Origin: an uncultured Gammaproteobacteria bacterium
GTDB lineage: Bacteria; Patescibacteriota; Microgenomatia; UBA10105; UBA927
Assembly (NCBI GenBank): GCA_964445435.1
Contig: CAYUKU010000005.1
Span: 6,627-70,626, forward strand
DNA length: 64,000 nt
Reading direction: 5' to 3'
In this document: piece by piece, positions 4,213 through 23,191 of the stretch
Layout of the letters: each line of letters starts with the position of its first letter
Numbering within the stretch: the stretch's first letter is position 1
Made by a program: the position numbers and the translations under genes
The notes under the pieces: generated by a model
The model's input: only the letters and a program-made list of their open reading frames with translations
What the model was told of the DNA's origin: nothing
Database searches by the model: none

Positions 4213-4241
4213 TTGCCTCATTGTGACCGTTTGACTATACT
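4213..4241 (+). promoter_or_regulatory. sigma70-like promoter of dcd (TTGCCT-17-TATACT); predicted start site at the ATG, so leaderless
   Basis: The -10 box TATACT lies at 4236-4241, 7 nt before the ATG at 4249. Confidence 0.5.
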
Positions 4242-4248
4242 GTGACGC

Positions 4249-4818
4249 ATGATTCTCTCCGATCGGGATATCAAAAAGGCGCTTAGAAGCGGTCATATTC
4301 ACATTTCTCCGGCACCGAATTTCGCTTCACAACTCGGCAGCTGCATGATCGATCTTCAGCTGGGCAATACATTCCGCGTGTTTAACCACAGCAAGACGCC
4401 GTACCTCGATCCGCAGGACCCCAAGACGCTGAAGGCCGCAACTGCCGAAGTGGTCATGCGAAACGGTGAGCCATTCATTCTTCATCCGGGTGAATTTGTG
4501 CTGGCTATGACGCGCGAGTACGTCGAAATGCCCGACGACTTGACGGGCAGACTGGAAGGCAGATCCTCAATTGGGCGTATGGGCGTAGTGGTCCACTCGA
4601 CAGCAGCCAATATCGAGTGCGGATTTCGGGGAAACATTACGCTCGAGCTTGCCAATATGGGTCGGATTCCGGTAATGTTATATCCCGGTATGCGGATTTG
4701 TTCGCTGTCGTTTGAACAGCTCACGAGTCCCGCAGACGTGCCGTATTACAAGAAGAAGGGTGCCAAGTACGTAGGCCAGAAAAAACCTGAGGCGAGTAAA
4801 ATCGCGCAGGAAAAATAG
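4249..4818 (+). CDS. dcd: dCTP deaminase
   Basis: Full-length alignment by eye to Dcd: MILSDRDIKKAL..., GRSSIGRMG, PGMRICSLSFE. Confidence 0.9.
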   Translation: MILSDRDIKKALRSGHIHISPAPNFASQLGSCMIDLQLGNTFRVFNHSKTPYLDPQDPKTLKAATAEVVMRNGEPFILHPGEFVLAMTREYVEMPDDLTGRLEGRSSIGRMGVVVHSTAANIECGFRGNITLELANMGRIPVMLYPGMRICSLSFEQLTSPADVPYYKKKGAKYVGQKKPEASKIAQEK

Positions 4819-4821
4819 CAT

Positions 4822-6354
4822 ATGGAATGGCCGATTCTATACAAACAAGTACTTCAGGTGAAAGATCCTACCAATCCGGTGGGTGTTGCCATCATGTGGA
4901 CCGAGCGGCAGGTTGTCGCCAATTTACTCAAAAGCGAAAATTACTGTGCCATCGGCAATCTCTACTCATCCGCCGGAATTTCCGCCATGATTCGCAATGT
5001 ATACGCCAATCCCCATATCCGTAAGATTGTGCTGTGGGGAGCGGATCTCTCCCGAAGCGGCCAGGCGCTCATGGCCCTCATGCAAAACGGCGTGGATGAA
5101 AATTTCTTTATCATCGGCGATGAGAAGAAAGGACAGATCGAGAAGGAAATCGGCCGCGAGGCAGTCGAATTATTTAGGAAATCCGTCGAGGTGGTCAATC
5201 TGCGCGGCAAGCCCGTATCCGATCTACAGAAGACAGTCGGACAGTTAAGCCGGACGAAATTCGACCCGTTCACGGATCCCAGGACGTTTCCGACAAGCCG
5301 TCCCAAGCCATTCACGTTCCCAAGCGAGCAGATTGGAATTCGCGCCCACGGACAGACGGCTGCCCAGACATGGCTGAAGATTCTTCAGAATATCATGCGT
5401 TACGGGCGCAACAAGACGACCCGCTACACCCAGGAGAATGAACTGAAAGAGCTCCTCAACGTCATGGCAGTCGTGTACAACGAAGATCCGGACAAGCCCT
5501 ACTTGCCGCACTATTTTCCGTTTTCGGAGAAAGACCTCGTGACGTATTATCCCCAAGTGTTATCAGCGAAGCAGATTCCCGGCATAGCCTATACGTATGG
5601 TCAGAGATTGCGTGATCACGATGGTGTGGATCAAATCCAAAACATCATTGACCTTATAAAAAACAGGCCGTTTAGTAAGAAAATGGCTGCCTTCACCGCG
5701 AAGGTGAAAGAAGACTGGTCTGTCGTCAACAAAGGGGACACGCCCTGTCTCACGCAGGTTCTTTGCAGCATTCAGGACGGTAAGCTCTTCATGACGACCC
5801 ACTTCCGAAGCCAGGACATGGTACACGGCTGGCCCCGAAACGTGTTCTCGCTTCGCAAACTGCAGAAGTTCATTGCCGATGAATCAGGCTATCCCATGGG
5901 TGCGTTTGTCATGATTACCCACTCTGCGCATATTTACAGTGACGATTACGAGCTTGTTGAGAATATCCTGAAAGATAACTATGACAAAGAGCTTGGATAC
6001 ACGAGCCGTCAGATGTTTGAGGAAGACATGCGCGGCAATGTCGTCATTGAAATTGAAGAAGTTGCGAAAAACGGTGTTGGCAGGCCCACCAAATATGCTG
6101 AAAAACCGCCGGTGAAAAAAGATTTCGAGATCGTGGTAAAACTCTACGCCCCCAACGGCGGCTTACTTCTCAAAGAATGGCGTGGGAAGACTGCAATGGA
6201 ACTCTATATTGAGATGGTGAATATCGGTGACTATCTCGTACTACCAAGTCACCTTATCTATATAGGCACGGAACTCCAGAGGGCTGAATACGCCATCAAA
6301 ATGGGCAAGCCCGAGAAGTTTAGCCAGGACCCCGCAGCCAACAAGGAACTATAA
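4822..6354 (+). CDS. ThyA-fold (thymidylate synthase / dNMP hydroxymethylase-like) three-domain protein
   Basis: Central region carries ThyA motifs: a TPCL nucleophile Cys in place of PCH, the RSQD...N substrate-binding segment, and HIY. About 160 aa of unknown N-terminal domain and about 140 aa of extra C-terminal domain are added. Confidence 0.65.
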   Translation: MEWPILYKQVLQVKDPTNPVGVAIMWTERQVVANLLKSENYCAIGNLYSSAGISAMIRNVYANPHIRKIVLWGADLSRSGQALMALMQNGVDENFFIIGDEKKGQIEKEIGREAVELFRKSVEVVNLRGKPVSDLQKTVGQLSRTKFDPFTDPRTFPTSRPKPFTFPSEQIGIRAHGQTAAQTWLKILQNIMRYGRNKTTRYTQENELKELLNVMAVVYNEDPDKPYLPHYFPFSEKDLVTYYPQVLSAKQIPGIAYTYGQRLRDHDGVDQIQNIIDLIKNRPFSKKMAAFTAKVKEDWSVVNKGDTPCLTQVLCSIQDGKLFMTTHFRSQDMVHGWPRNVFSLRKLQKFIADESGYPMGAFVMITHSAHIYSDDYELVENILKDNYDKELGYTSRQMFEEDMRGNVVIEIEEVAKNGVGRPTKYAEKPPVKKDFEIVVKLYAPNGGLLLKEWRGKTAMELYIEMVNIGDYLVLPSHLIYIGTELQRAEYAIKMGKPEKFSQDPAANKEL

Positions 6355-6364
6355 TAGCCTATAG

Positions 6365-6393
6365 TTGCAAATTAGCCTCCTGAGGAGTATACT
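6365..6393 (+). promoter_or_regulatory. sigma70 promoter TTGCAA-17-TATACT; downstream ATG at 6404
   Basis: Near-consensus hexamers with an exact 17-nt spacer. The predicted start site is 3-4 nt before the ATG at 6404. Confidence 0.55.
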
Positions 6394-6403
6394 ATTGCCC
6401 TCT

Positions 6404-6853
6404 ATGGCCAGTCCGCGCAGGCGCCACAAAATCCATTTCCAGCCCCTCTATTTGTGGGATTATGACGGCGTATGGGTACAGGCATCAAAAGATTCCTACT
6501 CCATCATGTGGGCGGCAATCGGCGGCATATTGGAAAAACAGGCACACCGTCCCGCCTCTGACATGGACGGCCTTAACTGGACCAAAATATTTGCCGATAC
6601 AAAGGGATTTACGGAACATACATTCGTTACCACCGTATTTGAAGCACTGGGGATTCAGCCGACTGACCGTGACCGCCTGTTTACGCATTTTATCCAGGAA
6701 CGCGCCGAACTTATCCGGTATTACAACGCGAAACATGGGCTTCGCAAGTTCGATGACCACAACGTCTATATCGACACCCATACGCTTGCAGTCAAACTGT
6801 CAGAGCGGTTTCCCGATGCCCTGCACGGACTAGTAACGGGTAACCCCCAGTGA
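6404..6853 (+). CDS. HAD-superfamily nucleotidase-like protein, N-terminal part; ends at an in-frame TGA
   Basis: LWDYDGVWV resembles HAD motif I (DxDGV, as in NT5C-type deoxyribonucleotidases). The reading frame continues into 6881-7393 across a single TGA. Confidence 0.45.
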   Translation: MASPRRRHKIHFQPLYLWDYDGVWVQASKDSYSIMWAAIGGILEKQAHRPASDMDGLNWTKIFADTKGFTEHTFVTTVFEALGIQPTDRDRLFTHFIQERAELIRYYNAKHGLRKFDDHNVYIDTHTLAVKLSERFPDALHGLVTGNPQ

Positions 6854-6880
6854 GTCATTGAACAGCGCCTTCCTGAACGG

Positions 6881-7393
6881 GTGCAGAATATCTTTCATAT
6901 CCGGATTGGCGGGGAGTACGGGAAGACGCGTCGGGATATGCTGGAACTAGCCGTGATTCACGCACGGAAACTGGGATGGCGGGGATACAAGGATGAAGGC
7001 GGCATGTATGTGAATGCCTTTTACTTCGACGATGCGAAGGCCGGTGCATTTTCCGCACTTGAGGGCGGGTTTCGAACGGTATTATTGGACCGACCGGATA
7101 TTCAGGAAGCGCATATGAGAATATTTGACCCGGCAGTATTGAATGACACGGTTGTGGAAGAAGTGCTTGATCGGTTCGGACCGGATAATACGCGGCGGAT
7201 CATCATCGGGGAGCCGGGCGTGACAACACAGTCGCTCTTCACGACCGCGACATTGGATAACTACTGGCTCCTCCGTCCCGCTGAGCATACCCATGTGAAG
7301 TTTCACGGCTGGCTGCAGCCTGCTATGCATGCGCTCTGGCAAGTGCATGAAGATGAGCCCCGTGAAGTTGCGTTTCGCGGGAAGGAAATGTAA
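6881..7393 (+). CDS. HAD-like protein, C-terminal part, in frame with 6404-6853 (possible split gene or pseudogene)
   Basis: Same frame as the upstream ORF, 27 nt after its TGA. Contains YFDDAKAG...LLDRPD, which resembles HAD motif IV. Confidence 0.4.
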   Translation: MQNIFHIRIGGEYGKTRRDMLELAVIHARKLGWRGYKDEGGMYVNAFYFDDAKAGAFSALEGGFRTVLLDRPDIQEAHMRIFDPAVLNDTVVEEVLDRFGPDNTRRIIIGEPGVTTQSLFTTATLDNYWLLRPAEHTHVKFHGWLQPAMHALWQVHEDEPREVAFRGKEM

Positions 7394-7413: not shown

Positions 7414-9432
7414 ATGAACAGAATTGATCAATTGGAGAGACAGCCGTCCGGGGAACGGGGGAATATTGTCCAAACACAAATCCTTGTCCGGCCGGATTTG
7501 GGGAAGTTCGACGATGAACGGCGTGAGCGGTGGGAAAAGTTTGACAACCAGCAAATTGCAGTTCAGGCATGGACACAGGGTGACGCACCGCATGTGACCC
7601 CGGATGAGATGCACCGGTTGCTCGCTGACGACGATACCCTGAAGATCGTGATTGGCAATGGGCTTGCGGCTGACTCAACGCAGCTGGACAACTCCGTATC
7701 TCTCGTGCGGACGATATTTGCTCAGCTGGCCTCCCACCAAACCTTGAAAGATAAAAAGGTCGTTATTCTCGGAATGTCGCTGAACGGTTTTCCCGGAAGT
7801 CTTTTTCGATCGGATTTCGTACCGACACCGGCCGATGTCCATCCCGATGAGTTTGCAGGCATGATCGACGACGCCCTTACCGACATGCAGTGCTCGCCTG
7901 ATTCCACGGTGGTGGCCGGTCATAGTTCTGGAGGTGAAACGGCCTTGCGTCTAGCAGACAAATACGCGACGGTTGCTTTGCATCCGGCCATCGGCGCCAA
8001 TACGACGCAGGATATATTCTCAATTCTTGAATCACTGGAGGGAATTTCCGACAAATTCGGATTTATCGCCGACAAAGCGGAAAATATTCCGGGCGTTGGG
8101 AGGTTTGTAAAATCGTTTATTAATAGCCGACGCGAAGATCTCACAAACGCCGTTCTGAAGTGGCTTGTGAGTGACAAAACCACTGCGATATCCAAGGATA
8201 TTGCATATCAGGTGGCCATGCATGTCCGGTGTAAGCAGCTGGCCGGGCCTGCATACGGCGCAAAATTGGCCGAGTTATCTCATATAGATGTGAATCCGTT
8301 TGGGCGGTTGGCAGACGCGAAGTTTAAGCCGATTGTCCTTCGATCGCATGGCGGTGATCGCCTCACCAAACAGGAAGCGACCGAGTATTACCTTTCGGAA
8401 TTACAAAAACATGGCCTGAATGTCATGGTAACCTCCGAAATATCTCCTGCCCTTCGCGGGGTTATCGATTTTGACGAAACATATACCTATGGTCATGACG
8501 CACCCTTTCTCATCCAGGAGGCATGTGATACTGCAGCCGCTGCAATTATCGTCCAGTTACAGAATGTCGAGCGCGTTCGCCAGGAAAAGAAGCGCTCGGC
8601 GGTCGTTGAAGCGCCACCGGTGCGGGAAGAGCCAAAAATAGAATCGCACGCCGGTTTGGAAGTCGATCCGTTCGTTGCAAAGGAACGGCGTGATTTTGCT
8701 CTGCAGCAATTTACCGATCTTATCGTAAGTGTGAAACGGTTATTGCAGGAAACCAACACCAAACTCGACGTCCACTTCCAAATCGTAGATGAGTTTACCG
8801 CTGCTGGTTTGGATGAGTATCTGGTACGGGCGGTGGAGATGCCGGAGAGTGAATTTTTGAAGTATCTGGATGGGGCGGATGTGCATTACGGATCTTTTTT
8901 CGCCAAACTAGCACAGATGGAATTGACATTGGCATGGAAAAAAGCGCTCGTGGCAGGGAGAGCCGGCGCTTCGCAGCGGGAAATTGCGGATATCGCATTC
9001 AACACCGTCGGGCTTCGTGCCGCTTGGGCGCGTTTGCATAGCCATGACACGGTGACCTCGCAGCAGCAATTGCGGGAGACTCCCAACACAATTGCGGGGC
9101 TTGATGGCTTTGCGCTTATGGATAGCATCATATTCGATGCGCACAGAACACACGGAATGGCGATCAGTGTTGTCTCCATGGCATCAAGTGACAAGCGGTA
9201 TAACGATTTATACGAGGCGAAACAATTGGTAGGGTGGTCAATCGCGATGCACGATGCTGATATACCGAACCAGAATATTCTGGATCTTTCCGAAGAAAAG
9301 TTTCACAGCATACTCACGGCACTTGAAGAGGAACTTGCATATAGGCTTCAGACGCCGATTCAACTGCATGAACAGGATTTTGCGCTCATGGCGGATATCA
9401 TGGCACAGGATACTTCGTCCACCCAAATGTAG
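7414..9432 (+). CDS. large alpha/beta-hydrolase-fold protein with long helical C-terminal region; function unknown
   Basis: 672 aa. GHSSGG nucleophile elbow (GxSxG) near residue 170. No other motifs recognised. Confidence 0.45.
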   Translation: MNRIDQLERQPSGERGNIVQTQILVRPDLGKFDDERRERWEKFDNQQIAVQAWTQGDAPHVTPDEMHRLLADDDTLKIVIGNGLAADSTQLDNSVSLVRTIFAQLASHQTLKDKKVVILGMSLNGFPGSLFRSDFVPTPADVHPDEFAGMIDDALTDMQCSPDSTVVAGHSSGGETALRLADKYATVALHPAIGANTTQDIFSILESLEGISDKFGFIADKAENIPGVGRFVKSFINSRREDLTNAVLKWLVSDKTTAISKDIAYQVAMHVRCKQLAGPAYGAKLAELSHIDVNPFGRLADAKFKPIVLRSHGGDRLTKQEATEYYLSELQKHGLNVMVTSEISPALRGVIDFDETYTYGHDAPFLIQEACDTAAAAIIVQLQNVERVRQEKKRSAVVEAPPVREEPKIESHAGLEVDPFVAKERRDFALQQFTDLIVSVKRLLQETNTKLDVHFQIVDEFTAAGLDEYLVRAVEMPESEFLKYLDGADVHYGSFFAKLAQMELTLAWKKALVAGRAGASQREIADIAFNTVGLRAAWARLHSHDTVTSQQQLRETPNTIAGLDGFALMDSIIFDAHRTHGMAISVVSMASSDKRYNDLYEAKQLVGWSIAMHDADIPNQNILDLSEEKFHSILTALEEELAYRLQTPIQLHEQDFALMADIMAQDTSSTQM

Positions 9433-10723: not shown

Positions 10724-10817
10724 GACAGTATATTATGCAACTTATTTGCATCTGTCAAAATGGTGCGCTCGGAGTTTCTGACTTGACATACTGGTTTTGA
10801 CAATTCATAGTAAAAGT

Positions 10818-11696
10818 ATGTTCGATCAGCTAATTGCGTTTGTTCTCTTAGGGTTAGGCTTGAAGACGCCGCTCACCGAAAGCGCGCCTGCACGTGTCGC
10901 ATATTCACAGTCCCAACAGTCCGTTCTATCAAGCAGCGATTCAAACGATGACGATTCCGAGCACGATGGCAGCGGCGGGAGCTCTTCCGGCAGCAATACA
11001 TCGGGAAGCGGATCGGGAAATGACAACGAAGACGAAAAAGAGGATGACCATGACGGCGCTTCCGGAGCATTCGGACCGACGGGGATATTCCCTGCGAAAA
11101 ACAGGATTTCCATTCAGCTGAAGGAGGCACATGATATCTACCGTGCCGAGCTTCAGAAGGATCATGAGGTCTGGAACGGTGAGCTAAGAGCAAAACTCGA
11201 AGCCGCCAAGAAACAGCACGAAGCCAGACGCGAGGCGCTGAAAAAGAAGTTAACGACACTGAGAGACGAGCGCAAAAAGACGATTATCACCAAGCTTCAG
11301 GACCGTTTCGATGAGGTAAATCGGAAGCGTCTCGAGCGCATGACCGAGAATCTCAAGAAGATCGAAGAGGTTCTCATGCATATCGAGGAGAAGGCAGCTG
11401 AGCAAAAAGAGCAAGGCAAGGACACCTCATCTGTCGACACCGCCGTCGCAAGCGCCCATACGGCGATAGATGCGGCAAAGGCGGCCCTCACCACGCAGGC
11501 GGGGAAAGAATATGTGATTACGATCAACTCGGAAACGACGGCGAAAAACGACGTCGGCCAGACGCGCCGGACGCTCGAAGCGGATCTGAAAGCCGTGCAC
11601 GGGAAAATCGTCGCCGCGCGCAAGGCTGTAAGTAATGCTATCCGCGCATTAGCACGACTTCGCGGAGAAGAGATCCCTGAGGAGGTCATCAAATGA
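10818..11696 (+). CDS. secreted coiled-coil protein with Ser/Gly/Asp/His-rich low-complexity segment
   Basis: Signal-peptide-like N-terminus MFDQLIAFVLLGLGL. An acidic S/G/D/H tract is followed by a Lys/Glu-rich coiled-coil. Divergent from the Fur-family gene. Confidence 0.5.
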   Translation: MFDQLIAFVLLGLGLKTPLTESAPARVAYSQSQQSVLSSSDSNDDDSEHDGSGGSSSGSNTSGSGSGNDNEDEKEDDHDGASGAFGPTGIFPAKNRISIQLKEAHDIYRAELQKDHEVWNGELRAKLEAAKKQHEARREALKKKLTTLRDERKKTIITKLQDRFDEVNRKRLERMTENLKKIEEVLMHIEEKAAEQKEQGKDTSSVDTAVASAHTAIDAAKAALTTQAGKEYVITINSETTAKNDVGQTRRTLEADLKAVHGKIVAARKAVSNAIRALARLRGEEIPEEVIK

Positions 11697-12001: not shown

Positions 12002-12087
12002 GACCCCATCAAGCTTGACACCGCCTTCATCGTTGTCTACCATACTCTTGGAGGTACCGTAAAAGAGTGCGGAAATTGGAAATTTTT

Positions 12088-12245
12088 AAGCGTGTGGCCC
12101 GCCGGCGAGGCGGGATACGAGGGAAGGGCGTATCGAAATAATCTGCGGGTGCCCTTTGGTAGTTGCTCCCTACCACAACAGCGATTCGGAAACCTCCCGG
12201 TAACGGAAGAACAACGAAGCTGACGGAGTCCGCCTCTTATCATCG
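12088..12245 (+). ncRNA. glmS ribozyme-like 5' leader (glucosamine-6-phosphate-responsive self-cleaving riboswitch), putative
   Basis: A 230-nt leader sits between a TTGACA-17-TACCAT promoter (12015-12043) and the glmS ATG. It contains ACGAGG...ATCGAA...TCTGCGGGTGCCCTT, which parallels the B. subtilis core ACGAGG..UAUCGAAUU..UCGGCGGAUGCCUCC. It also has GGTAACGGAAG (compare GUAAGGA) and a GAAGGGC/GCCCTT stem. Confidence 0.45.
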
Positions 12246-12279
12246 AAAAATCGTTTTTTATTTTCCGAAGGAGTGTTCT

Positions 12280-14061
12280 ATGTGTGGAATTTTTGGCTAC
12301 GTGGGTCCGTCACCCAAGGCGACATCATTGGTTCTTAAAGGTCTTAAGGATCTTGAATATCGGGGGTATGACAGCTGGGGCATCGCCGCAGTTCCGGATA
12401 ATTCAAACGGGCACGGCAAGATCGTCGTGAAGAAAAAGACGGGGAAAATCGGCAACGCCACGCCGGAAGGGTTTCCCGCCAGCTCATTTGCCTTCGGGCA
12501 CACGAGATGGGCGACACATGGCGGTGTCACGGATATAAACGCGCATCCCCACCTGGACTGTACGGGGACTATTGCCATCATCCATAACGGCATTCTGGAA
12601 AACTATATGGAGATCAAGGAGAAACTTCTGAAGAAAGGTCACCGATTTATCTCCCAAACGGATACCGAAGTCGCGGTTCATCTCATCGAGGAATACGCCA
12701 AAACCATGCTTTTCAGCAAGGCGGTCCAGAAGGCATTCAATGAGATGACGGGTCTCAATGCATTCATTGCCATGAATACGAAGATTAAGCAGTTCGTCGC
12801 CGTGCGAAACGGCTCGCCATTAGTCGTCGGGTTCGGGAACAAGGAAAACTACCTGGCGTCAGACGCGGCCGCCCTTTTGCCGCATACCAAGCAGGTGCAT
12901 TTTCTTGAGGACGATGAGATGGCGATTGTTACACAAAAAGGCGCCATGATATTCAACGCGCGGACGGGAGCCCATGTCGCACCGCGTAAACAGCTTCTTA
13001 CCTGGTCCCTGGCGCAGGTGGAGAAAGGCAGTTATCCGTATTTCATGCTGAAAGAGATCCATGAACAGCCGGGAATTCTGGCGGATATCGCAGCAGATGG
13101 CGCCAACAGAGCGGTAGAATTGGCGAAGGTCGTGAAGAAAAGCCATGACGTTGCCATCATCGGTTGCGGGACGGCGAGCTACGCGAGTCTTGCCGGATCT
13201 ATCTTGTTTAACAAGATTGCCAAGCGGCCGGTCACGTGGGTGATCGGAAGCGAATTTGATGACGAGGTCCAGTTTTTGGGTCCGTCGAGTCTGGTTATAG
13301 CCCTGTCTCAGTCCGGAGAGACGATGGATACGCTTGAGGCAGTGCGCAAAGCCAAGAAGAAAAAGGCGAAGATTCTTTCCATCGTCAACGTCATGGGGTC
13401 GACCCTGTACCGCGAGAGTGATTATCAGCTTCTCATAGGTGCAGGTCCGGAGAAGGGTGTTGCTTCGACGAAGGCGTTTACCGGGAAAATCGCCCACACG
13501 CTTCTTCTGGCTTACGCGTCAGTCGGGAAGGTCGGGGATGGGCAAAAAATGCTGACCAAAGCAGCGCGTGTGGCCAAGGAAATACTGTCGGAGAAATCCG
13601 TTTCCCGGATTAAGACGCTTGCCAAGCGCATCGCCAAAAACGAACACGCCTATGTCATCGGCCGCGGCATGAGTTATCCAACCGCCCTCGAGACGGCGCT
13701 TAAGATCAAGGAGATCTCCTACATTCACGCGGAAGGGTTTGCCGCGGGGGAGCTCAAGCACGGAGTGATTGCGCTTATCGAAGAAGGAACGCCGTGCATC
13801 GCGTTTCTCCCCAACGACGAGACGTACGCAGCGAACCTGGCTGGCGCCATGGAGATGAAGGCGCGCGGCGGGTACATCATCGGGGTATCGCACAAACCCC
13901 ACGAGATATTTGATTACTACATTCCGGTGAAGGATGTGGGACCGGCAACGCTCATCCCCAACGTCATGGTTGCCCAGCTTTTGGCCTATTACCTGACGAT
14001 TGAGCGCGGGTTTGATCCCGACATGCCGCGCAATCTGGCCAAAAGCGTGACGGTAAAATAG
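12280..14061 (+). CDS. glmS: glutamine--fructose-6-phosphate aminotransferase
   Basis: Starts MCGIFGYVG (N-terminal Cys nucleophile) and ends with SIS domains. RBS AAGGAG is present. The ORF-track start at 12163 is too far upstream. Confidence 0.95.
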   Translation: MCGIFGYVGPSPKATSLVLKGLKDLEYRGYDSWGIAAVPDNSNGHGKIVVKKKTGKIGNATPEGFPASSFAFGHTRWATHGGVTDINAHPHLDCTGTIAIIHNGILENYMEIKEKLLKKGHRFISQTDTEVAVHLIEEYAKTMLFSKAVQKAFNEMTGLNAFIAMNTKIKQFVAVRNGSPLVVGFGNKENYLASDAAALLPHTKQVHFLEDDEMAIVTQKGAMIFNARTGAHVAPRKQLLTWSLAQVEKGSYPYFMLKEIHEQPGILADIAADGANRAVELAKVVKKSHDVAIIGCGTASYASLAGSILFNKIAKRPVTWVIGSEFDDEVQFLGPSSLVIALSQSGETMDTLEAVRKAKKKKAKILSIVNVMGSTLYRESDYQLLIGAGPEKGVASTKAFTGKIAHTLLLAYASVGKVGDGQKMLTKAARVAKEILSEKSVSRIKTLAKRIAKNEHAYVIGRGMSYPTALETALKIKEISYIHAEGFAAGELKHGVIALIEEGTPCIAFLPNDETYAANLAGAMEMKARGGYIIGVSHKPHEIFDYYIPVKDVGPATLIPNVMVAQLLAYYLTIERGFDPDMPRNLAKSVTVK

Positions 14062-14328: not shown

Positions 14329-14979
14329 TTAGTATTTAATCACAAATTCCTTGAGGAGTTTTTTCTCCGTCTTTCCGCCGATAATTGCCTTTACTTCGAA
14401 GTATTGCTCCACCCCTGAATGGGAGAGTTTTTCTTTCAGAAGCTCGTCGACCTGGAAGATGCCCGCCGAGTTGCTCATCGTGATGTAGATTTCAATCGGG
14501 CGGTCTTTGCCTTCTTTTATTTCCACGCCTTCGACGGCATACGCGGAGAGCGAATGGATATTTACTTTTCCTGCCTCATAGGGAATGCGGGAGCGGCCGC
14601 TACTCATATCAAGTGCGTCGGCGATCCGTACGATGCCGGCCTCTTTGGTAAGCGGTCTTCCGTCAGATCGGTGACTGATGATGGCGTGAAGCGTTTCAGA
14701 GATGACAATCGTTCGTTCCGAAATGGGCATAAACGAGAGCGTTTCCCGAAGAAGCGAATTTGCCAGAAACAGGCTATATGTTTCGTGGTCAATGCGGTGG
14801 ATGGACATCCCAAGATCATGGAGAATGCTTGCAAGTACGATGACCACTTCGGCATGCTGTTGGGTGAGTTTGTAGTCTTTCACGATGGACATCTGGATGT
14901 TGTTTTTCTCAAGAATCCGCGCAAGTCGAAGTGCGATATTTGCCACAATCTGGAAATGGACGGGTCCGTGATCGCTCAT
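14329..14979 (-). CDS. HD-domain phosphohydrolase (possibly a YfbR-like 5'-deoxynucleotidase)
   Basis: H...HD...H...D motifs: DHGPVHF, ILHDLGM, TLHAIISH, VRIADALD. The ORF-track N-terminus at 15489 overlaps the dNK gene, so the start was trimmed to the Met at 14979. Confidence 0.55.
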   Translation of the reverse strand: MSDHGPVHFQIVANIALRLARILEKNNIQMSIVKDYKLTQQHAEVVIVLASILHDLGMSIHRIDHETYSLFLANSLLRETLSFMPISERTIVISETLHAIISHRSDGRPLTKEAGIVRIADALDMSSGRSRIPYEAGKVNIHSLSAYAVEGVEIKEGKDRPIEIYITMSNSAGIFQVDELLKEKLSHSGVEQYFEVKAIIGGKTEKKLLKEFVIKY

Positions 14980-15177
14980 GCCCAGCCGGTCAATGGCGTT
15001 GACGTTGAGGATGTTCCAGAGCGTCACGATTTCTTCATTATTGTTTATCCGCTCAAGTGTTTCTGAGAGGAGTTTGTTACTCGCGGTCGGAACGTGGATG
15101 AGAGGTTTATCGGTAGTGTTCACTGGCACAGTATAGCAGAAAGGGTATGTTTGTGGTACAACAGTCAGGTAGTAACT

Positions 15178-15807
15178 ATGCGCAAAAGAAATTTGTATAT
15201 CTCCGTCATGGGTACGATGGGAAGCGGAAAGACAACCGCCGCCCGTCTCATCGCCCAAGAGCTTAAGTTTCAACTGGTGGAGGAAAATTTCGGCGAAAAC
15301 GCGTTTCTCCCCAGATTTTATGGAGACATGAACCGCTGGGCGTTCCATTCCCAGACGTTTTTTTTGATGGAGAAGATTACCCAGATGTTGGAAACCCCGA
15401 AAATGCTGGAAAAGGGGCCGGTCGTCCAGGATACGCCCATCCAGCAGGACGCGTTTTCTTATGCCAAGGCCCAGCATGTTCTCGGACATATTGATGATGC
15501 CGAGTGGAAACTGTATCAGAAGATTTACAAATCCTTCGAGCCGTATTTCCCCAAGCCCGATTGCATCGTTTTTCTGGAAACCTCAATTCCGTCGATTGCC
15601 GACCGCATCGAGAAGCGCGGGCGAGGGTATGAGCAGAAAATTCCGCAAAGCTACCTGGAACTTCTGGATATGCTCAATCACAAGTGGCTAACGGAAAACA
15701 AAAGCATCCCCGTCTTGACGGTGGCCACCGACGGACTCAATATCGTCACAAGCAAGGTCGCCAAAGAGGCGCTTCTCACAGCCGTAAAGAAGAAGCTGAA
15801 GCTTTAG
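15178..15807 (+). CDS. deoxynucleoside kinase
   Basis: P-loop GTMGSGKTT and the overall dNK/dCK-family pattern. Start trimmed to MRKRNLYISV. Confidence 0.8.
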   Translation: MRKRNLYISVMGTMGSGKTTAARLIAQELKFQLVEENFGENAFLPRFYGDMNRWAFHSQTFFLMEKITQMLETPKMLEKGPVVQDTPIQQDAFSYAKAQHVLGHIDDAEWKLYQKIYKSFEPYFPKPDCIVFLETSIPSIADRIEKRGRGYEQKIPQSYLELLDMLNHKWLTENKSIPVLTVATDGLNIVTSKVAKEALLTAVKKKLKL

Positions 15808-15850: not shown

Positions 15851-16552
15851 ATGCAGGATAAGCTGATGTCGGACATACGCGTAATCATTTGGGATTTCGA
15901 CGGGACGTTCTATCCGCAGAATCCCGCGGTAACTGCAGCGATGGAGGAAGGACAGTACCAAACAATCATGCGCCACAAGGGCTGGACGCATGAGCGGGCG
16001 AAAGAAGAATTCTGGAAGATATACCCTTCGCAAACGACAAGCGGAAATACCGCGGTGGGACGCATCTGCGGAATCACCACTGCTCAGGCGGGCGTGGAAA
16101 ACGAACAGGGATTTGATAGGCTTGCGTTTATCCCAAAGGATCACCATCTTCCCGAATTGTTTGAGAAGTTAAAAGGCTTCCGGCACTTCATTCTGGGAAA
16201 TGGCGTTCAAGCGAATTTGTTGAAAACAACCAAAGGGTTAGGCATTGATCACGTGTTTGAAGAGATCGTCACGAGTGAAACGGTAGGAGCCAACAAGCCG
16301 GATCCGGCGGGATTCCGGTATATCCTGAAAAAGACAGGGTTTGCGCCCCGACAGCATGTGATGGTTGGAGACCGCGAGGTGGTCGACCTTGCTCCCGCCA
16401 AAAAGCTGGGCATGCGCACCTGTCTCGTGACGTGGGGAGAGGGGTTTTCCGAACTGCCAACAACCGGTGAGAGCGTGGATATCACCATCCCAACGGTATA
16501 CGACCTGCCAGATCGGCTCCATGAAATTGCATCTGCAAGTCGCTTAGCATAG
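15851..16552 (+). CDS. HAD-family hydrolase (nucleotidase-like)
   Basis: IIWDFDGTF (motif I) and VGDREVVDLAPA (motif IV). The start could instead be the ATG at 15866. Confidence 0.7.
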   Translation: MQDKLMSDIRVIIWDFDGTFYPQNPAVTAAMEEGQYQTIMRHKGWTHERAKEEFWKIYPSQTTSGNTAVGRICGITTAQAGVENEQGFDRLAFIPKDHHLPELFEKLKGFRHFILGNGVQANLLKTTKGLGIDHVFEEIVTSETVGANKPDPAGFRYILKKTGFAPRQHVMVGDREVVDLAPAKKLGMRTCLVTWGEGFSELPTTGESVDITIPTVYDLPDRLHEIASASRLA

Positions 16553-16561
16553 TATATTTTT

Positions 16562-17251
16562 ATGGCACGAGGAAAACTTATCGTTCTTGAGGGCACAGAC
16601 GGATCAGGCAAGGGAACGCAGTTCAAACTTCTTGTGGATTACTTATCCACACGCAATATTCCCTACGAAACTATGGACTTCCCGCGGTACGGCAAATCGT
16701 TTTTCGGAGACCTTGCGGGCCGCATGCTCGCAGGAGACTTCGGCGGGGCGCAAACCATTGCGCCTGAGCTGGGGGTACTGCCGTTTGCCTGCGACCGGTG
16801 GCTTCTGAAGGATGATCTTGTGAAATGGCTTTCTGACGGCAAGATCGTGGTGAGTAATCGATACACCGCATCAAGTGCCGTGTATCACGCAGCCAAGCTT
16901 GAAAAAGAGAAGCAATACGCGTTTATCGATTGGGTGTATAAACTGGAACAGGAAATCATCGGCCTGCCCCAAGAAGACGTTGCGATCTATTTTCACGTTC
17001 CTGTTTCGGTATCCCAACAGCTTATCGAGAAAAAGGCAGCCCGCACCTATCTGGGCGACAAAAAGAAAGATATCTACGAAGAAGACACCCGTGTCCAGGA
17101 AAACGTTGAGCACTTGTACCTTGACCTGGCCGTCAACAGAAACAGCTGGAAAACCATCGAGTGCGTGCGGGATACCGTCATGCGCACGCCCGAAGAGATA
17201 CACAATGATGTACTTGACGTTCTTCAGGTAAACGGAGTATTTTCTTCTTAG
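16562..17251 (+). CDS. tmk: thymidylate kinase
   Basis: LIVLEGTDGSGKGTQ P-loop and DRY-like motif. Confidence 0.9.
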   Translation: MARGKLIVLEGTDGSGKGTQFKLLVDYLSTRNIPYETMDFPRYGKSFFGDLAGRMLAGDFGGAQTIAPELGVLPFACDRWLLKDDLVKWLSDGKIVVSNRYTASSAVYHAAKLEKEKQYAFIDWVYKLEQEIIGLPQEDVAIYFHVPVSVSQQLIEKKAARTYLGDKKKDIYEEDTRVQENVEHLYLDLAVNRNSWKTIECVRDTVMRTPEEIHNDVLDVLQVNGVFSS

Positions 17252-17308: not shown

Positions 17309-17890
17309 ATGCCAAAGAATGCTCGCCGTTCGAAAAAGGGTCGTTTAACCGTTGTTGCCGGTCCCATGTTCTCCGGGAAAACGAGTAAGCTCGTTGCGAT
17401 GGTCGAAGTATTTACCCGTATGGGACATACGGTTCTCACCGTAAAGCCGAAATTGGACAACCGCTACGGCGGGAAAGACGAAATCCACTCCCACGATCAC
17501 AAGAAAACGCCGGCAATCGTGGTGGACGGCGAAGCCCCCGAGGTGATTATCGAGAAAATTCTGGAAACCGGCGCGGACAAAGTTATCTTCGATGAAGTGC
17601 AGTTTTTCGAGAAAGAAAAGGTCATGTACGTTATAGATGTCCTTCGCAAGCGCGGAATTCATGTGATTGCCGCGGGACTCCTCTATGATTACCAGCGCAA
17701 ACCGTTTGGTTGTACGCCAGATCTCCTGGGACTTGCGGATGAACGGCTCGAGTTGTTTGCTATTTGCCAGCACTGCGGTTCGCTCGCGCGGCATACGCAG
17801 AGAAACAAGGGTGGGAAAGGACAAATCGTCGTGGGTGCAGCTGACATGTACACCGCCAGTTGCGAAAAATGCCACAAGATATATAAATAA
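17309..17890 (+). CDS. tdk: thymidine kinase
   Basis: GPMFSGKT P-loop and a C-terminal Zn ribbon CQHCGS...CEKC. Confidence 0.9.
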   Translation: MPKNARRSKKGRLTVVAGPMFSGKTSKLVAMVEVFTRMGHTVLTVKPKLDNRYGGKDEIHSHDHKKTPAIVVDGEAPEVIIEKILETGADKVIFDEVQFFEKEKVMYVIDVLRKRGIHVIAAGLLYDYQRKPFGCTPDLLGLADERLELFAICQHCGSLARHTQRNKGGKGQIVVGAADMYTASCEKCHKIYK

Positions 17891-18070: not shown

Positions 18071-18901
18071 ATGAAACCAAAAATCTCAGCAACCGCACCG
18101 ACGACTGCGGGGAAGCAGTATCACATTGAGTGTAAAGAAGGCGATACGGCAAGGTACGTCATTCTCCCAGGCGATCCCGGGCGGGTTGCCAAGATCGCTT
18201 CAGTGTGGGACGAGAAGCACGAAGTCGCCCATCACCGCGAATATCACACGATGACGGGGAAGGTCGACGGTACGCCCATTTCCTGTACCTCGACTGGCAT
18301 TGGATCTCCATCCCTTATGATCGGCGTTGATGAGCTTGCCAGAATCGGCAGCGACACATTTATTCGATTGGGTACGACAGGCGGACTTCATGAGAATATG
18401 AATCTTGGTGACGTGGTCATCTCAACGGGCGCGGTTCGTTTTGACGGCGCGTCGAAAGACCTGGTTGTACCCGAATATCCGGCGGTTGCCAATTATGAAA
18501 TCGTCATGGCGCTTATCCAGGCGGCGGAAGAACTAAAGGTTCCGTATCACGTCGGTGTCACCGCATCGACGGATTCGTTCTATACCGGGCAGGGGAGACC
18601 GGCGCTTCGCGGTTACCTGCCGAGTTTCAAAGAAAATATTTTGAGGGACATGCAGGCTGCCGGAGTCAAGAATTTCGAGATGGAGGTCGCGCCGCTTCTC
18701 ACGTTTGCAAGCATTTTCGGCAAACGGGCAGGGGCCATCTGTTTCGTGATCGCCAACCGCGTGACGGATGAGTTTGAAATCCGGGACGAGTGGGCAGTGA
18801 GAACCGCAAAGGTTGCATCTCGCGCGATCGTGATTCTCGCAGGATGGGATAAGAAAAAGGAAAAATCAGGGAAGAGATTTCTGTACCCCGACCTACTCTA
18901 G
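18071..18901 (+). CDS. nucleoside phosphorylase (PNP/UDP family, uridine-phosphorylase-like)
   Basis: ARYVILPGDPGRV and GTTGG resemble the PNP_UDP_1 motifs. Confidence 0.8.
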   Translation: MKPKISATAPTTAGKQYHIECKEGDTARYVILPGDPGRVAKIASVWDEKHEVAHHREYHTMTGKVDGTPISCTSTGIGSPSLMIGVDELARIGSDTFIRLGTTGGLHENMNLGDVVISTGAVRFDGASKDLVVPEYPAVANYEIVMALIQAAEELKVPYHVGVTASTDSFYTGQGRPALRGYLPSFKENILRDMQAAGVKNFEMEVAPLLTFASIFGKRAGAICFVIANRVTDEFEIRDEWAVRTAKVASRAIVILAGWDKKKEKSGKRFLYPDLL

Positions 18902-19656: not shown

Positions 19657-20643
19657 ATGGGGACACAGGCACCGAGCTATCTCACTGACCTGGTTGACCT
19701 TCACCTTCATTTGGGTTCTTCTTCCACGCCGCATTTTCTCTGGGAACTGGCTCACGAGCAGGGCATCAGATTGGCAGAGAAAGATTACTGGTCCTTCATT
19801 AATTCCATTACCATCAAAGACCAGACCACATACGATCACTATTTGTCATTTTTTGATCTCACTGAACTTATCCAGTCGTCCACATACGCCATCGAGAAGG
19901 CGACCCATAACGCAGTATCCCGCGCGTACAGGAAGGGTAACATTCAGACGCTTGAGATTCGTTTCAATCCTATGCTGCGAAATCGCGGCGGTGAACAGGA
20001 TCTGGACAAAATCATCTTCGGCGCCGTGGTCGGGATGAAGAAAGCCTGCATGGAATACCCGGTTCGCGCAGGTCTTATCCTTATGATGGACCGCAGATTT
20101 CCCAAAGAGCAGAATGAGATTATCGCCCAAAAAGCAGCGCGGTTTGCCTCAGAGGGAGTTGTGGGCCTGGATATCGCAGGACCCATAAACAAAAACTTCC
20201 ACGTGGAGGATATTGCAGGTGCCGTCGCCAAAGCCCGTGAATCCGGGGTGAAAATTACTATTCACACCGGCGAAGTGACGCCCGCATCCGAAGTATGGGA
20301 TGTGGTGAAGCTCCTTTCTCCTGACCGGATTGGTCATGGCATCCGTTCTATCGATGATCCGTCGCTTCTGGAATACCTGCGGCAGCACCACATTGCTCTT
20401 GAGGTGTGTCCGACTTCCAACCTCCAGACCAGCGCGGTGAAAACATGGGAGGAAATGAAAACCGTGATCGGGACATTGAAGAAAAGCGGTGTTCTCTTTA
20501 CTATAAATTCGGACGGTCCTGAATTGTTGGGGACGAATGTGAAAGAGGAGTTTGAGCGGCTTGTTGCGAAAGGAATTTTGACGCCCGAGGATGTCAGTGT
20601 CATCACAAAAACGGCAAAGGAGGTAGCATTTGTTCGTGCATAG
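19657..20643 (+). CDS. add: adenosine/adenine deaminase
   Basis: HLHLGSS metal-binding start, HTGE, and SDGP (SDDP-like). Confidence 0.8.
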   Translation: MGTQAPSYLTDLVDLHLHLGSSSTPHFLWELAHEQGIRLAEKDYWSFINSITIKDQTTYDHYLSFFDLTELIQSSTYAIEKATHNAVSRAYRKGNIQTLEIRFNPMLRNRGGEQDLDKIIFGAVVGMKKACMEYPVRAGLILMMDRRFPKEQNEIIAQKAARFASEGVVGLDIAGPINKNFHVEDIAGAVAKARESGVKITIHTGEVTPASEVWDVVKLLSPDRIGHGIRSIDDPSLLEYLRQHHIALEVCPTSNLQTSAVKTWEEMKTVIGTLKKSGVLFTINSDGPELLGTNVKEEFERLVAKGILTPEDVSVITKTAKEVAFVRA

Positions 20644-20775
20644 TGTGCGGACGGATGGCTCGCCGGAAGGGGTCCCAACGGCGCGCAGCCTTCCTCTTTG
20701 GAATACGTACGTGTAAGAGTGAGAACGCAATGCGAGCACCGTTGGGAGGGAGAGGCGAGACAGGACCCGTGGATT

Positions 20776-21861
20776 ATGGATAAAAAAATTATCATGGACG
20801 GCATTACCTTTGACGACGTGCTTCTCTTACCGGGATACACGGATTTCAAACGTGCTCAGGTTGACCTCGCAACCCGACTTCACCCCTCGATGACGCTTGC
20901 GCTTCCTGTGATTTCCTCACCCATGGACACCGTGACAGAAGAGTCGATGGCTACAGCGCTTGCTCTCGCCGGCGGCCTGGGAATCATCCACCGGAATCTT
21001 AGTGTTCCCGATCAGGCTGAGAAGGTCTCAATCGTCAAGAAAAAGAATCTTCCGGTAGGTGCAGCAGTCGGTGGAGGATCTGATTTCCAGGAGCGCGTGG
21101 ATGCGCTCGTGAAGGCCGGAGCCGACCTTCTGGTTGTTGATTCAGGCCACGGGAATACGTCGTTTGTGGCTGATGGAGTGGGCACGATCAAGAAGCATTA
21201 CCCGGGTGCGGTTGTGATGGCCGGAAATGTTGCGACATTTGATGGAGCAAAGAGGCTTATTGCAGCAGGCGCCGATATCCTGAGAGTCGGTATGGGTCCG
21301 GGGAGTATTTGCACGACCCGCATCATCACCGGCATGGGCGTTCCGCAGTTGACCGCAGTGGCAGAAGCGGTAAAAGCGGTCAAAGGAACGAATGTTACCG
21401 TCATTGCCGACGGCGGCATCAAACAGATAGGAGACATGGCCAAGGCAATCGGCATGGGCGCCCACGCAGTGATGCTCGGATCGCTTCTGGCGGGATTCGA
21501 CGAATCTCCAGGTGAGCGGGTGTTTGTTGACGGCAAGTCCTACAAGCAGTATCGCGGGATGGGTTCAGTCGGCGCGATGAAGAAAGGAAGCGCGGAGCGC
21601 TATGGCCAGACGAAAGACATCCAGGCGCGTAAAATGATCGCAGAAGGGGTAGAGGGTCTCGTGAAGTACAAAGGAGCGGTGACTGAATATCTTGACCAGG
21701 TGACGGGGAGCCTCAAGTCAGCTTTTTATTACATTGGCGCCAAGACCTTGGAAGAGTTTCACCAGAAAGCGCGGTTTGTCCGGATTACATCAGCAAGCAT
21801 GGTAGAGAGCCACCCTCATAGTATCCACATCTCAAACGCCGGCTCCAACTACAAGATATAA
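20776..21861 (+). CDS. IMP dehydrogenase / GMP reductase family protein lacking the CBS subdomain
   Basis: TIM-barrel IMPDH motifs GPGSICTTR (catalytic Cys loop), IADGGI and GMGS. Start trimmed to MDKKIIMDG. Confidence 0.8.
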
Positions 21862-21868
21862 TCAATCC

Positions 21869-23191
21869 ATGAAACTTTCTGACCAAGACCCTAGCATTGC
21901 CCAACTCATCGAGAAAGAATCCGTCCGTCAAAGGGACGGTTTGGAGATGATTCCTTCAGAAAACTACGTCTCGCCGGCAGTCCGAGAGGCGATGGGATCC
22001 ATTCTTACGAACAAATATTCAGAAGGATATCCCCATAAGCGGTATTACGGGGGCAACGAATTTATCGACGAGGTGGAAAGTTTGGCGATAGAGCGCGCGA
22101 AGAAGCTTTTCGGCGTTGCCCACGTCAACGTCCAGCCATATTCAGGGTCGCCCGCCAATCTCGCGGTCTACATGGCCACGTGTCAACCTGGCGATACGAT
22201 CATGGGTCTGAATCTTCCTGACGGAGGACACCTGACCCATGGATGGAAAGTTTCGGCGGCGGGAATTTTCTATAAAAGCGTCCCGTATCATGTGAAAGAA
22301 GACGGTCGTGTAGACTTCGACGAAGTCTGGCGCTTGGTGAAAGAACACAAGCCCCGTCTTATCTGGACCGGAGCAACCGCATATTGTTATCAATATGAGT
22401 TTGAGAAGTTTGTGGAAATCGCCGACAGTGTTGGGGCGTATCTGGCTGCCGACATCGCCCATGTAGTGGGCCTGGTGATTGCAGGCGTTCACAAAAGTCC
22501 GTTTAACTACGCTCACATCGTCACCACAACGACGCACAAGACGCTTCGCGGGCCGCGTGGGGGGATGATTATGGTCACTGACCGAGGGCGTACAAAAGAT
22601 CCACAACTTGCAGAGAAAGTAGATAAAGCGGTATTTCCCGGGCTTCAGGGAGGACCACACGATCATACGACGGCAGCAATCGCCGTTGCCCTGAAAGAAG
22701 CCTCCACGAAAGAATTTGCGGCGTACGGCGCACAAGTGGTCGCAAACGCGAAAGCACTCGCAGAGGTTCTTAAAAAGGAAGGGGTGAAACTCGTGGGCAA
22801 CGGAACGGAAAATCATCTTCTTCTCGTTGACTTGGTTCCCCAGCTTGGACCAGGAGGAGGCATATTTGCCCAAGAGGCGCTGGGAGCGGCGGGAATCACG
22901 GTAAACAAAAACACGATTCCGAAGGATCCATCAAGCCCGTTTTATCCTTCAGGAGTTCGCCTGGGGACACCTGCCATAACGACAAGGGGGATGAAGGAAG
23001 AAGAAATGAAAGCAATCGGGAAATGGATTGCCCGTGCGATAAAGGAAGCATCGTCGTATCGATTGCCCGATGGGAAAGACGAACGGATCCAGTATGTTGC
23101 GAAAGCGAAAAAAGAACTATCGGTAAACAAGAAGCTCGCTTCGATTGCGAATGACGTTGCGGTTTTGTGCCGCCAATTCCCCGTACCGTAG
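21869..23191 (+). CDS. glyA: serine hydroxymethyltransferase
   Basis: Full-length SHMT pattern, including the TTTHKTLRGPRGG PLP-lysine motif. Confidence 0.95.
   Translation: MKLSDQDPSIAQLIEKESVRQRDGLEMIPSENYVSPAVREAMGSILTNKYSEGYPHKRYYGGNEFIDEVESLAIERAKKLFGVAHVNVQPYSGSPANLAVYMATCQPGDTIMGLNLPDGGHLTHGWKVSAAGIFYKSVPYHVKEDGRVDFDEVWRLVKEHKPRLIWTGATAYCYQYEFEKFVEIADSVGAYLAADIAHVVGLVIAGVHKSPFNYAHIVTTTTHKTLRGPRGGMIMVTDRGRTKDPQLAEKVDKAVFPGLQGGPHDHTTAAIAVALKEASTKEFAAYGAQVVANAKALAEVLKKEGVKLVGNGTENHLLLVDLVPQLGPGGGIFAQEALGAAGITVNKNTIPKDPSSPFYPSGVRLGTPAITTRGMKEEEMKAIGKWIARAIKEASSYRLPDGKDERIQYVAKAKKELSVNKKLASIANDVAVLCRQFPVP

Follow-up and report, generated by a model that had tools for sequence, protein, structure and literature searches.

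A window of 64,000 nucleotides from a patescibacterial genome (contig CAYUKU010000005.1; the window is the whole stretch that was analysed) carries the dCTP deaminase gene dcd. It is followed almost immediately by a gene for a protein of 510 amino acids (aa) with a thymidylate synthase (TS) fold at its centre. This protein is probably the thymidylate synthase of the cell, with the elements that its short TS core lacks supplied by a module made of the two flanking domains, one MtrA-like and one known as DUF4346.

In the proposed pathway, dUMP would come from the branch of the co-transcribed Dcd. It would be methylated to dTMP with a methylene-tetrahydropterin, most likely the methylene-tetrahydrofolate made by the nearby GlyA, and the dTMP would be passed to Tmk. 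The flanking module, and above all DUF4346, would contribute pterin-binding or active-site-closing elements absent from the core. The MtrA-like domain would have lost cobalamin ligation, or never have had it, and its pocket, lined by other residues, would serve to bind another ligand or to contact the core.

The architecture is common in bacteria of the candidate phyla radiation (CPR) and is named in databases; the window gene is an ordinary member of its family. No paper that describes or studies this three-domain arrangement was found in the literature, including under the combination of MtrA, thymidylate synthase and Patescibacteria.

The three domains and their relatives

The gene and its domains are laid out as follows.

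4822-6354, + strand: three-domain thymidylate-synthase-family protein, 510 aa (open reading frame; three Pfam families above gathering scores)
4822-5301, + strand: N-terminal MtrA-like domain of the Rossmann type, aa 1-160 (Pfam MtrA; PDB 5laa; Foldseek)
5314-6006, + strand: short methanogen-type TS core, aa 165-395 (TIGR03283; Pfam TS; Foldseek)
6007-6354, + strand: C-terminal PterinBD-DUF4346 domain, aa 396-510, with the stop codon (Pfam PF14251; conservation)

Pfam MtrA (PF04208) covers aa 2-128 with 43 bits, against a gathering score of 25. Thymidylat_synt (PF00303) covers aa 257-386 with 68.7 bits against 24.3, and this match takes up profile positions 92-225 of 266. PterinBD-DUF4346 (PF14251) covers aa 436-503 with 35.7 bits against 29.6, and relatives reach 71 bits. 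The initial annotation had left both flanks unassigned and had given the C-terminal domain about 140 aa; both flanks now have a family, and the C-terminal domain measures about 115 aa (396-510). It includes a clade-specific insert of about 19 aa (aa 415-433; 6064-6120), where model confidence is low.

An AlphaFold2 model of the whole protein, built from a diverse alignment, is compact, with a predicted local distance difference test (pLDDT) of 88.2 and a predicted TM-score (pTM) of 0.80. The first run, made with close homologues only, had a pTM of 0.45 and was used for the first fold search only. Pfam, the model and Foldseek agree on a three-domain protein with a ThyA-fold centre, as had been proposed from the sequence. 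Given the confident model and the Foldseek matches, the flanks are predicted to be folded, conserved domains and not low-complexity extensions. The possibility that this is a conventional ThyA with such extensions, raised at the outset, also fits poorly with the similar conservation of the three domains.

The TS core gives a Foldseek E value of 1.6e-13, and its alignments to MilA, AfhB and canonical TS run over about 230 columns. The root-mean-square deviation (rmsd) to MilA and E. coli TS is 2.6-3.1 Å, with MilA at 2.6 Å, and AfhB, a short phage enzyme, reaches a TM-score of 0.81. Canonical ThyA (from E. coli, L. casei and B. subtilis, PDB 1bko) shares the fold at an rmsd of about 3 Å over the same number of columns.

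Among sequence models, by far the best TS match is the methanogen type. Aa 178-377 of the core align with essentially the whole of TIGR03283 (model positions 6-199 of 201) at 141.7 bits, whereas the bacterial model TIGR03284 gives only 53.5 bits on the same core. Like the ThyA of Methanocaldococcus and Methanothermobacter, the window core is of a short form that appears to lack the C-terminal part of canonical ThyA, namely what follows about position 225 of the 266 in the Pfam TS profile. In methanogens, however, the enzyme has a single domain and about 200 aa, while the window core has another domain on either side. The hosts differ too: those of the window family are bacteria (CPR and Chloroflexi) with a folate-type GlyA, whereas methanogens use tetrahydromethanopterin (H4MPT).

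The N-terminal domain matches PDB 5laa, a structure of MtrA, with an E value of 1e-10. Foldseek confirms the Rossmann-type fold, with TM-scores of 0.74-0.78 and rmsd values of 2.1-3.1 Å to MtrA structures (5l8x has a TM-score of 0.76 and an rmsd of about 3 Å). MtrA is the cobalamin subunit of the methyl-H4MPT:coenzyme M methyltransferase. Its His84 is the lower axial ligand of the cobalt, and is hydrogen-bonded to Glu54 (PMC4915002). In the window protein the position of His84 falls in a deletion of two residues, Glu54 aligns to Ser49, and the motif GAIPYxEN is only vaguely retained. Unlike MtrA, the protein has no membrane anchor and is not accompanied by mtr genes.

Conservation was counted in 50 diverse relatives, 29-50% identical to the window protein. 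Position 49 is Ser or Thr in 44 of them, and the loop is without His in 45. With both His84 and Glu54 missing, cobalamin ligation of the MtrA type is not expected. A cobalamin-dependent mechanism, prompted by the MtrA homology and by adjacent ribonucleotide reductases, was rejected as the main explanation on the absence of this dyad. The most conserved residues of the domain (G45, Y48, G52, R58, D75 and S79) sit in the beta2-alpha2 and beta3-alpha3 loops. These are the corrinoid-pocket loops of MtrA, which suggests that the pocket is retained but relined.

The C-terminal domain has the signature D-P-R-G-N-F ... H ... Y-L-G-x-E-L-x-K-A-E ... Y-x-Q-D. The residues conserved across the family are D402-P-R404-G405, H477, G482, E484, A488, E489 and Q502; of these, H477 never varies, and D402, E484 and E489 hardly do. 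A profile made from 40 diverse sequences found no solved relative among PDB sequences at E<=10, and no paper on DUF4346, PterinBD or MJ0757 was found. An arrangement in which DUF4346 opens with the C-terminal strands of canonical TS was also tried. Here hhalign picks E. coli residues 228-239 with a probability of 0.2%, and the idea was rejected.

DUF4346 also turns up in other protein families. The domain matches the C-terminal end (positions 416-497 of 497) of TIGR00284, named 'dihydropteroate synthase-like protein'. In NF002128, the N-terminal domain of the window protein matches positions 144-274 and the C-terminal domain positions 289-370. Since these two matches adjoin, the MtrA-like domain and DUF4346 are contiguous in NF002128 proteins, and the TS core is inserted between them here.

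In NF002128 the partner of the two contiguous domains is an MtrH- or dihydropteroate synthase-like barrel and not a TS; these proteins are likewise uncharacterised. In Asgard archaea, MtrA-like domains are fused to pterin-binding MtrH-like domains, with a function that is unknown there (PMC11291895). In each of these settings (NF002128, TIGR00284 and the Asgard fusions), the partner of the MtrA-like domain, of DUF4346 or of both is a pterin-dependent enzyme.

One relative, P0204 (837 aa), has the TS core and DUF4346 duplicated in tandem as a unit, without a second MtrA-like domain. This suggests that DUF4346 is closely tied to the TS core. In the second copy, Ser replaces the catalytic Cys, and the protein would form a built-in pseudo-heterodimer. 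Another relative, P0245, has two MtrA-like domains in tandem.

Catalytic residues and substrate

The catalytic cysteine lies in D306-T-P-C309-L310 at 5737-5751, with the codon of Cys309 at 5746-5748. The stretch RSQDMVHGWPRN at 5806-5841 holds R329-S-Q-D332...N340; the codons of Arg329, Ser330 and Asp332 lie in 5806-5817 and that of Asn340 at 5839-5841. The motif H370-I-Y372 is also present. These three motifs had been recognised in the initial annotation, which set TPCL apart from the canonical PCH. TPCL is no mark of atypical chemistry, as B. subtilis ThyA (PDB 1bko) has TPCV at the same place.

Cys309 (E. coli C146) and Asn340 (N177) are found in 50 of the 50 relatives, and the Pro-Cys pair and Arg329 (R166) are invariant. 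Asp332 (D169) is present in 47, while Ser330 (S167), His370 (H207) and Tyr372 (Y209) are each present in at least 90%. The nucleophile and these six further residues of canonical ThyA are thus retained. Unlike canonical ThyA, the window protein has a polar residue at the position of L143, has Lys-Lys in place of R126'/R127' in its clade, seems to lack the C-terminal lid, and carries two extra domains.

A 2026 study of TS homologues ties some of these positions to substrate and chemistry (PMC13326640). In it, N177D is diagnostic of enzymes that use dCMP and D169N of flavin-dependent 5-hydroxy-dCMP synthases. Hydroxymethylases are recognised by an acidic residue at L143, where in methylases a bulky hydrophobic residue is presumed to exclude water.

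It had been asked whether the enzyme might act on dCMP. The N177 rule would exclude this, and overall dCMP is an unlikely substrate because the equivalent residue is Asn in every one of the 50 relatives. The Asp at this position that marks dCMP and CMP hydroxymethylases, such as T4 gp42 and MilA, is absent. The marks of AfhB and RB69 gp48 (D169N and N177D) are absent as well, with both Asp332 and Asn340 retained. The fold match to 9iqu reflects the common short TS core.

The family and its gene neighbourhood

An exhaustive search without profiles yielded 291 clusters (50% identity) at E<=1e-30. Among the best 150, nearly every protein has 450-550 aa and aligns over its full length, with 28-52% identity. 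More than 200 of the homologues listed have the same three Pfam domains, and they go by 'thymidylate synthase', 'DUF4346 domain-containing protein' or 'hypothetical'. TIGR03283 and NF002128 are both matched by 50 of the 50 diverse relatives. Mean pairwise identity among these is 0.32 for the N-terminal domain, 0.36 for TS and 0.35 for the C-terminal domain. The three domains are thus about equally conserved. The family is large and old.

A scan of species-representative genomes gave 119 relatives. The hosts are Gottesman-, Woese-, Roizman-, Chisholm-, Beckwith- and Cerribacteria, Paceibacterota, and three metagenome-assembled genomes (MAGs) of Chloroflexi. Some MAGs labelled Nanoarchaeota also have the gene; one such locus has a bacterial context (MreC, PBP2, DprA and EF-Ts). 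The genome scan used alignment A3, since the most diverse one (A2) diverged too far for this purpose, and the resulting 80 loci are therefore biased towards Microgenomates. The window belongs to a Gottesmanbacteria-like member of the Microgenomates group: the closest genome matches, at 85-86% identity, are Gottesmanbacteria MAGs, and an identical protein is found on a contig from sequencing run SRR10095373. The three-domain form was not found in phage genomes.

The genes around the three-domain gene that bear on its role are listed below.

4213-4241, + strand: promoter-like site (TTGCCT, 17 nt, TATACT); weak, from a consensus scan only
4249-4818, + strand: dcd (dCTP deaminase, 189 aa; TIGR02274 at 204.7 bits against a cut-off of 92.8; Pfam DCD at 4.9e-44)
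14329-15489, - strand: HD-domain protein, without NCBIfam match
15094-15807, + strand: dNK (Pfam match)
15851-16552, + strand: HAD hydrolase/phosphatase (Pfam match)
16562-17251, + strand: tmk (Pfam match)
17309-17890, + strand: tdk (Pfam match)
18071-18901: uridine phosphorylase, a nucleoside phosphorylase (TIGR01718 at 286.7 bits, above the cut-off of 280.3)
19657-20643: add
20698-21861, + strand: IMPDH-family protein, 387 aa, without CBS match
21869-23191, + strand: glyA (serine hydroxymethyltransferase; Pfam SHMT at 7e-160), the likely source of methylene-tetrahydropterin

The salvage neighbourhood described in the initial annotation, from the HD protein to glyA, is therefore present, and the coordinates of dcd and of the 510-aa reading frame are exact. 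The two are separated by 3 nt: the stop codon TAG of dcd lies at 4816-4818, then comes 'cat', and the ATG follows at 4822. According to tblastn with two proteins of the DCD family from a related locus (L001), dcd is the sole DCD/dUTPase-family gene of the window.

The promoter-like site is a possible promoter of the dcd-thyA pair. Its TATACT ends 7 nt ahead of the ATG of dcd, and a Shine-Dalgarno sequence would not fit in between (4236-4249). The dcd transcript may be leaderless for this reason.

Context was compared in 29 loci, dereplicated so that no two of their three-domain proteins reach 80% identity. The flanks are short in many of these loci, so the counts are lower bounds. The dcd gene lies within two genes of the three-domain gene in 11 loci. 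For tmk, blastp with the window protein detects the gene in 10 loci, and clustering in 16. Nine loci have dNK, 10 a HAD phosphatase and 6 a ribonucleotide reductase. The tdk gene is present in 5, and in three Chloroflexi loci it lies directly upstream. In 4 loci, glyA lies within 10 kb. Finally, P0164, a relative of 733 aa, ends in a fused dCMP deaminase, and this enzyme produces dUMP. This fusion, together with the linkage to dcd, tmk, tdk, dNK and ribonucleotide reductase, argues for dTMP synthesis.

In 5 of the 29 loci, a ribonucleotide reductase with an ATP-cone (Ribonuc_red_lgC/lgN) is one or two genes upstream of the three-domain gene, and in a sixth it is six genes upstream; related loci with such a gene include L042, L044, L048 and L057. 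If this reductase is the cobalamin-dependent class II enzyme, the MtrA homology of the N-terminal domain deserves a second look.

Two loci (L001 and L002) show a compact order: DCD, DCD/dUTPase, the three-domain gene, tmk, rpsB, tsf, frr, an M50 protease and ProRS. The window shares the run from rpsB to ProRS, at 23.8-30 kb. Between thyA and rpsB, where these loci have tmk, the window has about 17 kb (6.4-23.8 kb). This stretch holds dNK, HAD, tmk, tdk, udp, add, IMPDH, glyA, glmS, a PfkB kinase, the HD protein and uncharacterised reading frames, and it looks like a lineage-specific accretion of salvage genes.

No folA or thyX was found by tblastn with E. coli FolA and T. maritima ThyX in the window or within 10 kb on either side in 82 related loci, the genomes being about 1 Mb in size. 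A single weak ThyX match, in locus L060, turned out to be a phosphoribosyltransferase. Across CPR genomes, glyA is present in 81%, folD in 80% and folA in 55% (PMC11974145).

The window also holds some further features. The IMPDH-family protein matches the IMP dehydrogenase model in two stretches, skipping the CBS (Bateman) region, and its scores reach neither the IMPDH cut-off nor that of the GMP reductase model. The HD reading frame and the listed dNK reading frame overlap by about 400 nt on opposite strands. The true start of dNK is probably further downstream than listed, since its Pfam match begins at aa 36.

A glmS ribozyme lies at 12078-12232 (+ strand; Rfam RF00234, 52.4 bits against a gathering score of 37) in this CPR genome. 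It begins ahead of glmS (12163-14061) and extends past the listed start of that gene. In 4 of the 29 related loci, glmS is a few genes away from the three-domain thyA.

Directly after the three-domain gene, two reading frames of 162 and 170 aa lie in the same frame at 6365-7393 (+ strand), split by a single in-frame TGA at 6851-6853. The first has a HAD-like DxDG motif (WDYDGVW), recognised by eye, and both are without Pfam match. Gene calls on an independent Logan contig (L083) show this split as well. Homologues of the pair were not found in the 82 related loci. The pair could be a pseudogene, a case of read-through, or two genuine genes.

Three long reading frames, at 7414-9432, 10797-11696 and 43790-45403 (all on the + strand; 672, 299 and 537 aa), match no Pfam family above threshold. 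The first two are also without NCBIfam match, and that at 7414-9432 has only a sub-threshold match to an alpha/beta-hydrolase.

Weighing the explanations

Several observations count against a thymidylate synthase that is completed by its flanks. The score of 141.7 bits for TIGR03283 is below the trusted cut-off of 174.55 for equivalog membership. The equivalent of L143 is Asp306, and in the 50 relatives this position is always polar (N in 18, H in 9, D in 7, K in 4, S, Q and G in 3 each, R in 2); alignment to the S. aureus and E. coli enzymes has no gap between Asp306 and the catalytic Cys. This is the hydroxymethylase pattern, and it keeps that question alive. In the clade of the window protein, Lys286 and Lys287 replace the R126'/R127' pair; 39 of the 50 relatives have Arg at the first of these positions, and 33 at the second. 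The equivalent of R21 is not conserved in these relatives. Along with those of E58, W80 and W83, it was not confidently placed when the TS core of the family was aligned globally to E. coli ThyA with hhalign; that alignment is solid from Y94 to Y209 and unreliable across the N-terminal half. As to the flanks, pterin binding by DUF4346 is suggested only by its Pfam name and its partner proteins, and the fold search could not isolate the domain. The biochemistry of archaeal and methanogen ThyA has hardly been followed up, and no full reaction reconstituted for the three-domain family or for any methanogen-type ThyA was found in the literature. What emerges is a variant of a known enzyme, with its closest model scoring below the membership cut-off and one feature of methylases lacking.

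A rival view takes the enzyme not for a methylase but for a dUMP 5-hydroxymethylase, or for some other TS-superfamily enzyme that modifies C5; this is improbable. Such an enzyme would fit the L143 position, polar or acidic across the family as in T4-type hydroxymethylases and MilA. It would also fit the structural matches, which include MilA and the flavin-dependent dCMP hydroxylase AfhB among the best, and the apparent absence of the canonical lid; the tdk of the window could then provide dTMP through salvage. The invariant Asn at N177 nevertheless excludes dCMP, and with Asp at D169 there is no signature of a 5-hydroxycytosine synthase. Many cellular genomes moreover carry the gene, and it is linked to dcd and tmk of the dTTP pathway, with no glycosyltransferase or other hypermodification genes seen nearby. 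The architecture occurs in no phage, and many related loci have no tdk within 10 kb.

As for the flanks, the best guess is that they bind or handle the pterin cofactor. It is unlikely that they are structural or regulatory only, serving in oligomerisation, in docking to Dcd, Tmk or ribonucleotide reductase in a dNTP-synthesis complex, or in allostery. The compact and confidently predicted arrangement, the tight linkage to several dNTP enzymes and the lost cobalamin ligands, as expected of a domain recruited as a scaffold, would all agree with this. Yet polar residues in both flanks are conserved at a mean pairwise identity of about 33%, which is more typical of ligand sites, and DUF4346 recurs specifically with pterin-dependent enzymes and has been duplicated along with the TS core.

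It is slightly less likely again that the module forms a second functional site, one that carries or regenerates the reductant or uses a non-folate pterin, so that no separate DHFR is needed (compare protist DHFR-TS, or ThyX). The seemingly retained but relined N-terminal pocket points that way, as do the invariant or near-invariant polar residues D402, R404, H477, E484, E489 and Q502, which are typical of a binding or catalytic site. The pterin enzymes among the other partners of the module, the lack of a folA match in the window and in the 10-kb flanks of 82 related loci, and the detection of folA in only 55% of CPR genomes, can be read in the same direction. The idea is purely inferential, however: the protein has no nucleotide-binding glycine motif, no match to a flavin or NAD(P) family and no similarity to DHFR, and in a genome of about 1 Mb, not finding folA within 10 kb means little. 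Protist bifunctional DHFR-TS also has an extra N-terminal alpha/beta domain fused to a pterin-using TS, but Pfam, NCBIfam and tblastn with E. coli FolA find nothing of DHFR in the window protein. The Foldseek rmsd between the two is at least 20 Å, with only the TS part fitting by itself.

Thymidylate synthesis is essential, and it is a classic drug target. To our knowledge only two enzyme solutions for it are known, which are ThyA with DHFR, and ThyX. That a second cofactor site, with a non-folate pterin, a bound reductant or a self-regenerated tetrahydropterin, makes the three-domain enzyme a third route beside these is doubtful, and by a shade more so than the presence of a second site as such. 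If true, it would explain how many CPR bacteria live without folA.

The three-domain form appears to be the thymidylate synthase of much of the CPR, namely of the Microgenomates group and some Paceibacterota, and of some Chloroflexi. If its flanks only aid folate binding, it would be a case of domain insertion that compensates for a minimal core of the archaeal type. Current surveys of folate metabolism in the CPR count folA, glyA and folD (PMC11974145). If the flanks change the cofactor or redox logic, then folate dependence in these bacteria, and the 'folate exchange' between host and symbiont, would have to be reinterpreted. As a soluble bacterial protein, the enzyme would also be a model for methanogen-type ThyA, for DUF4346 and for MtrA-like domains that do not bind a corrinoid.

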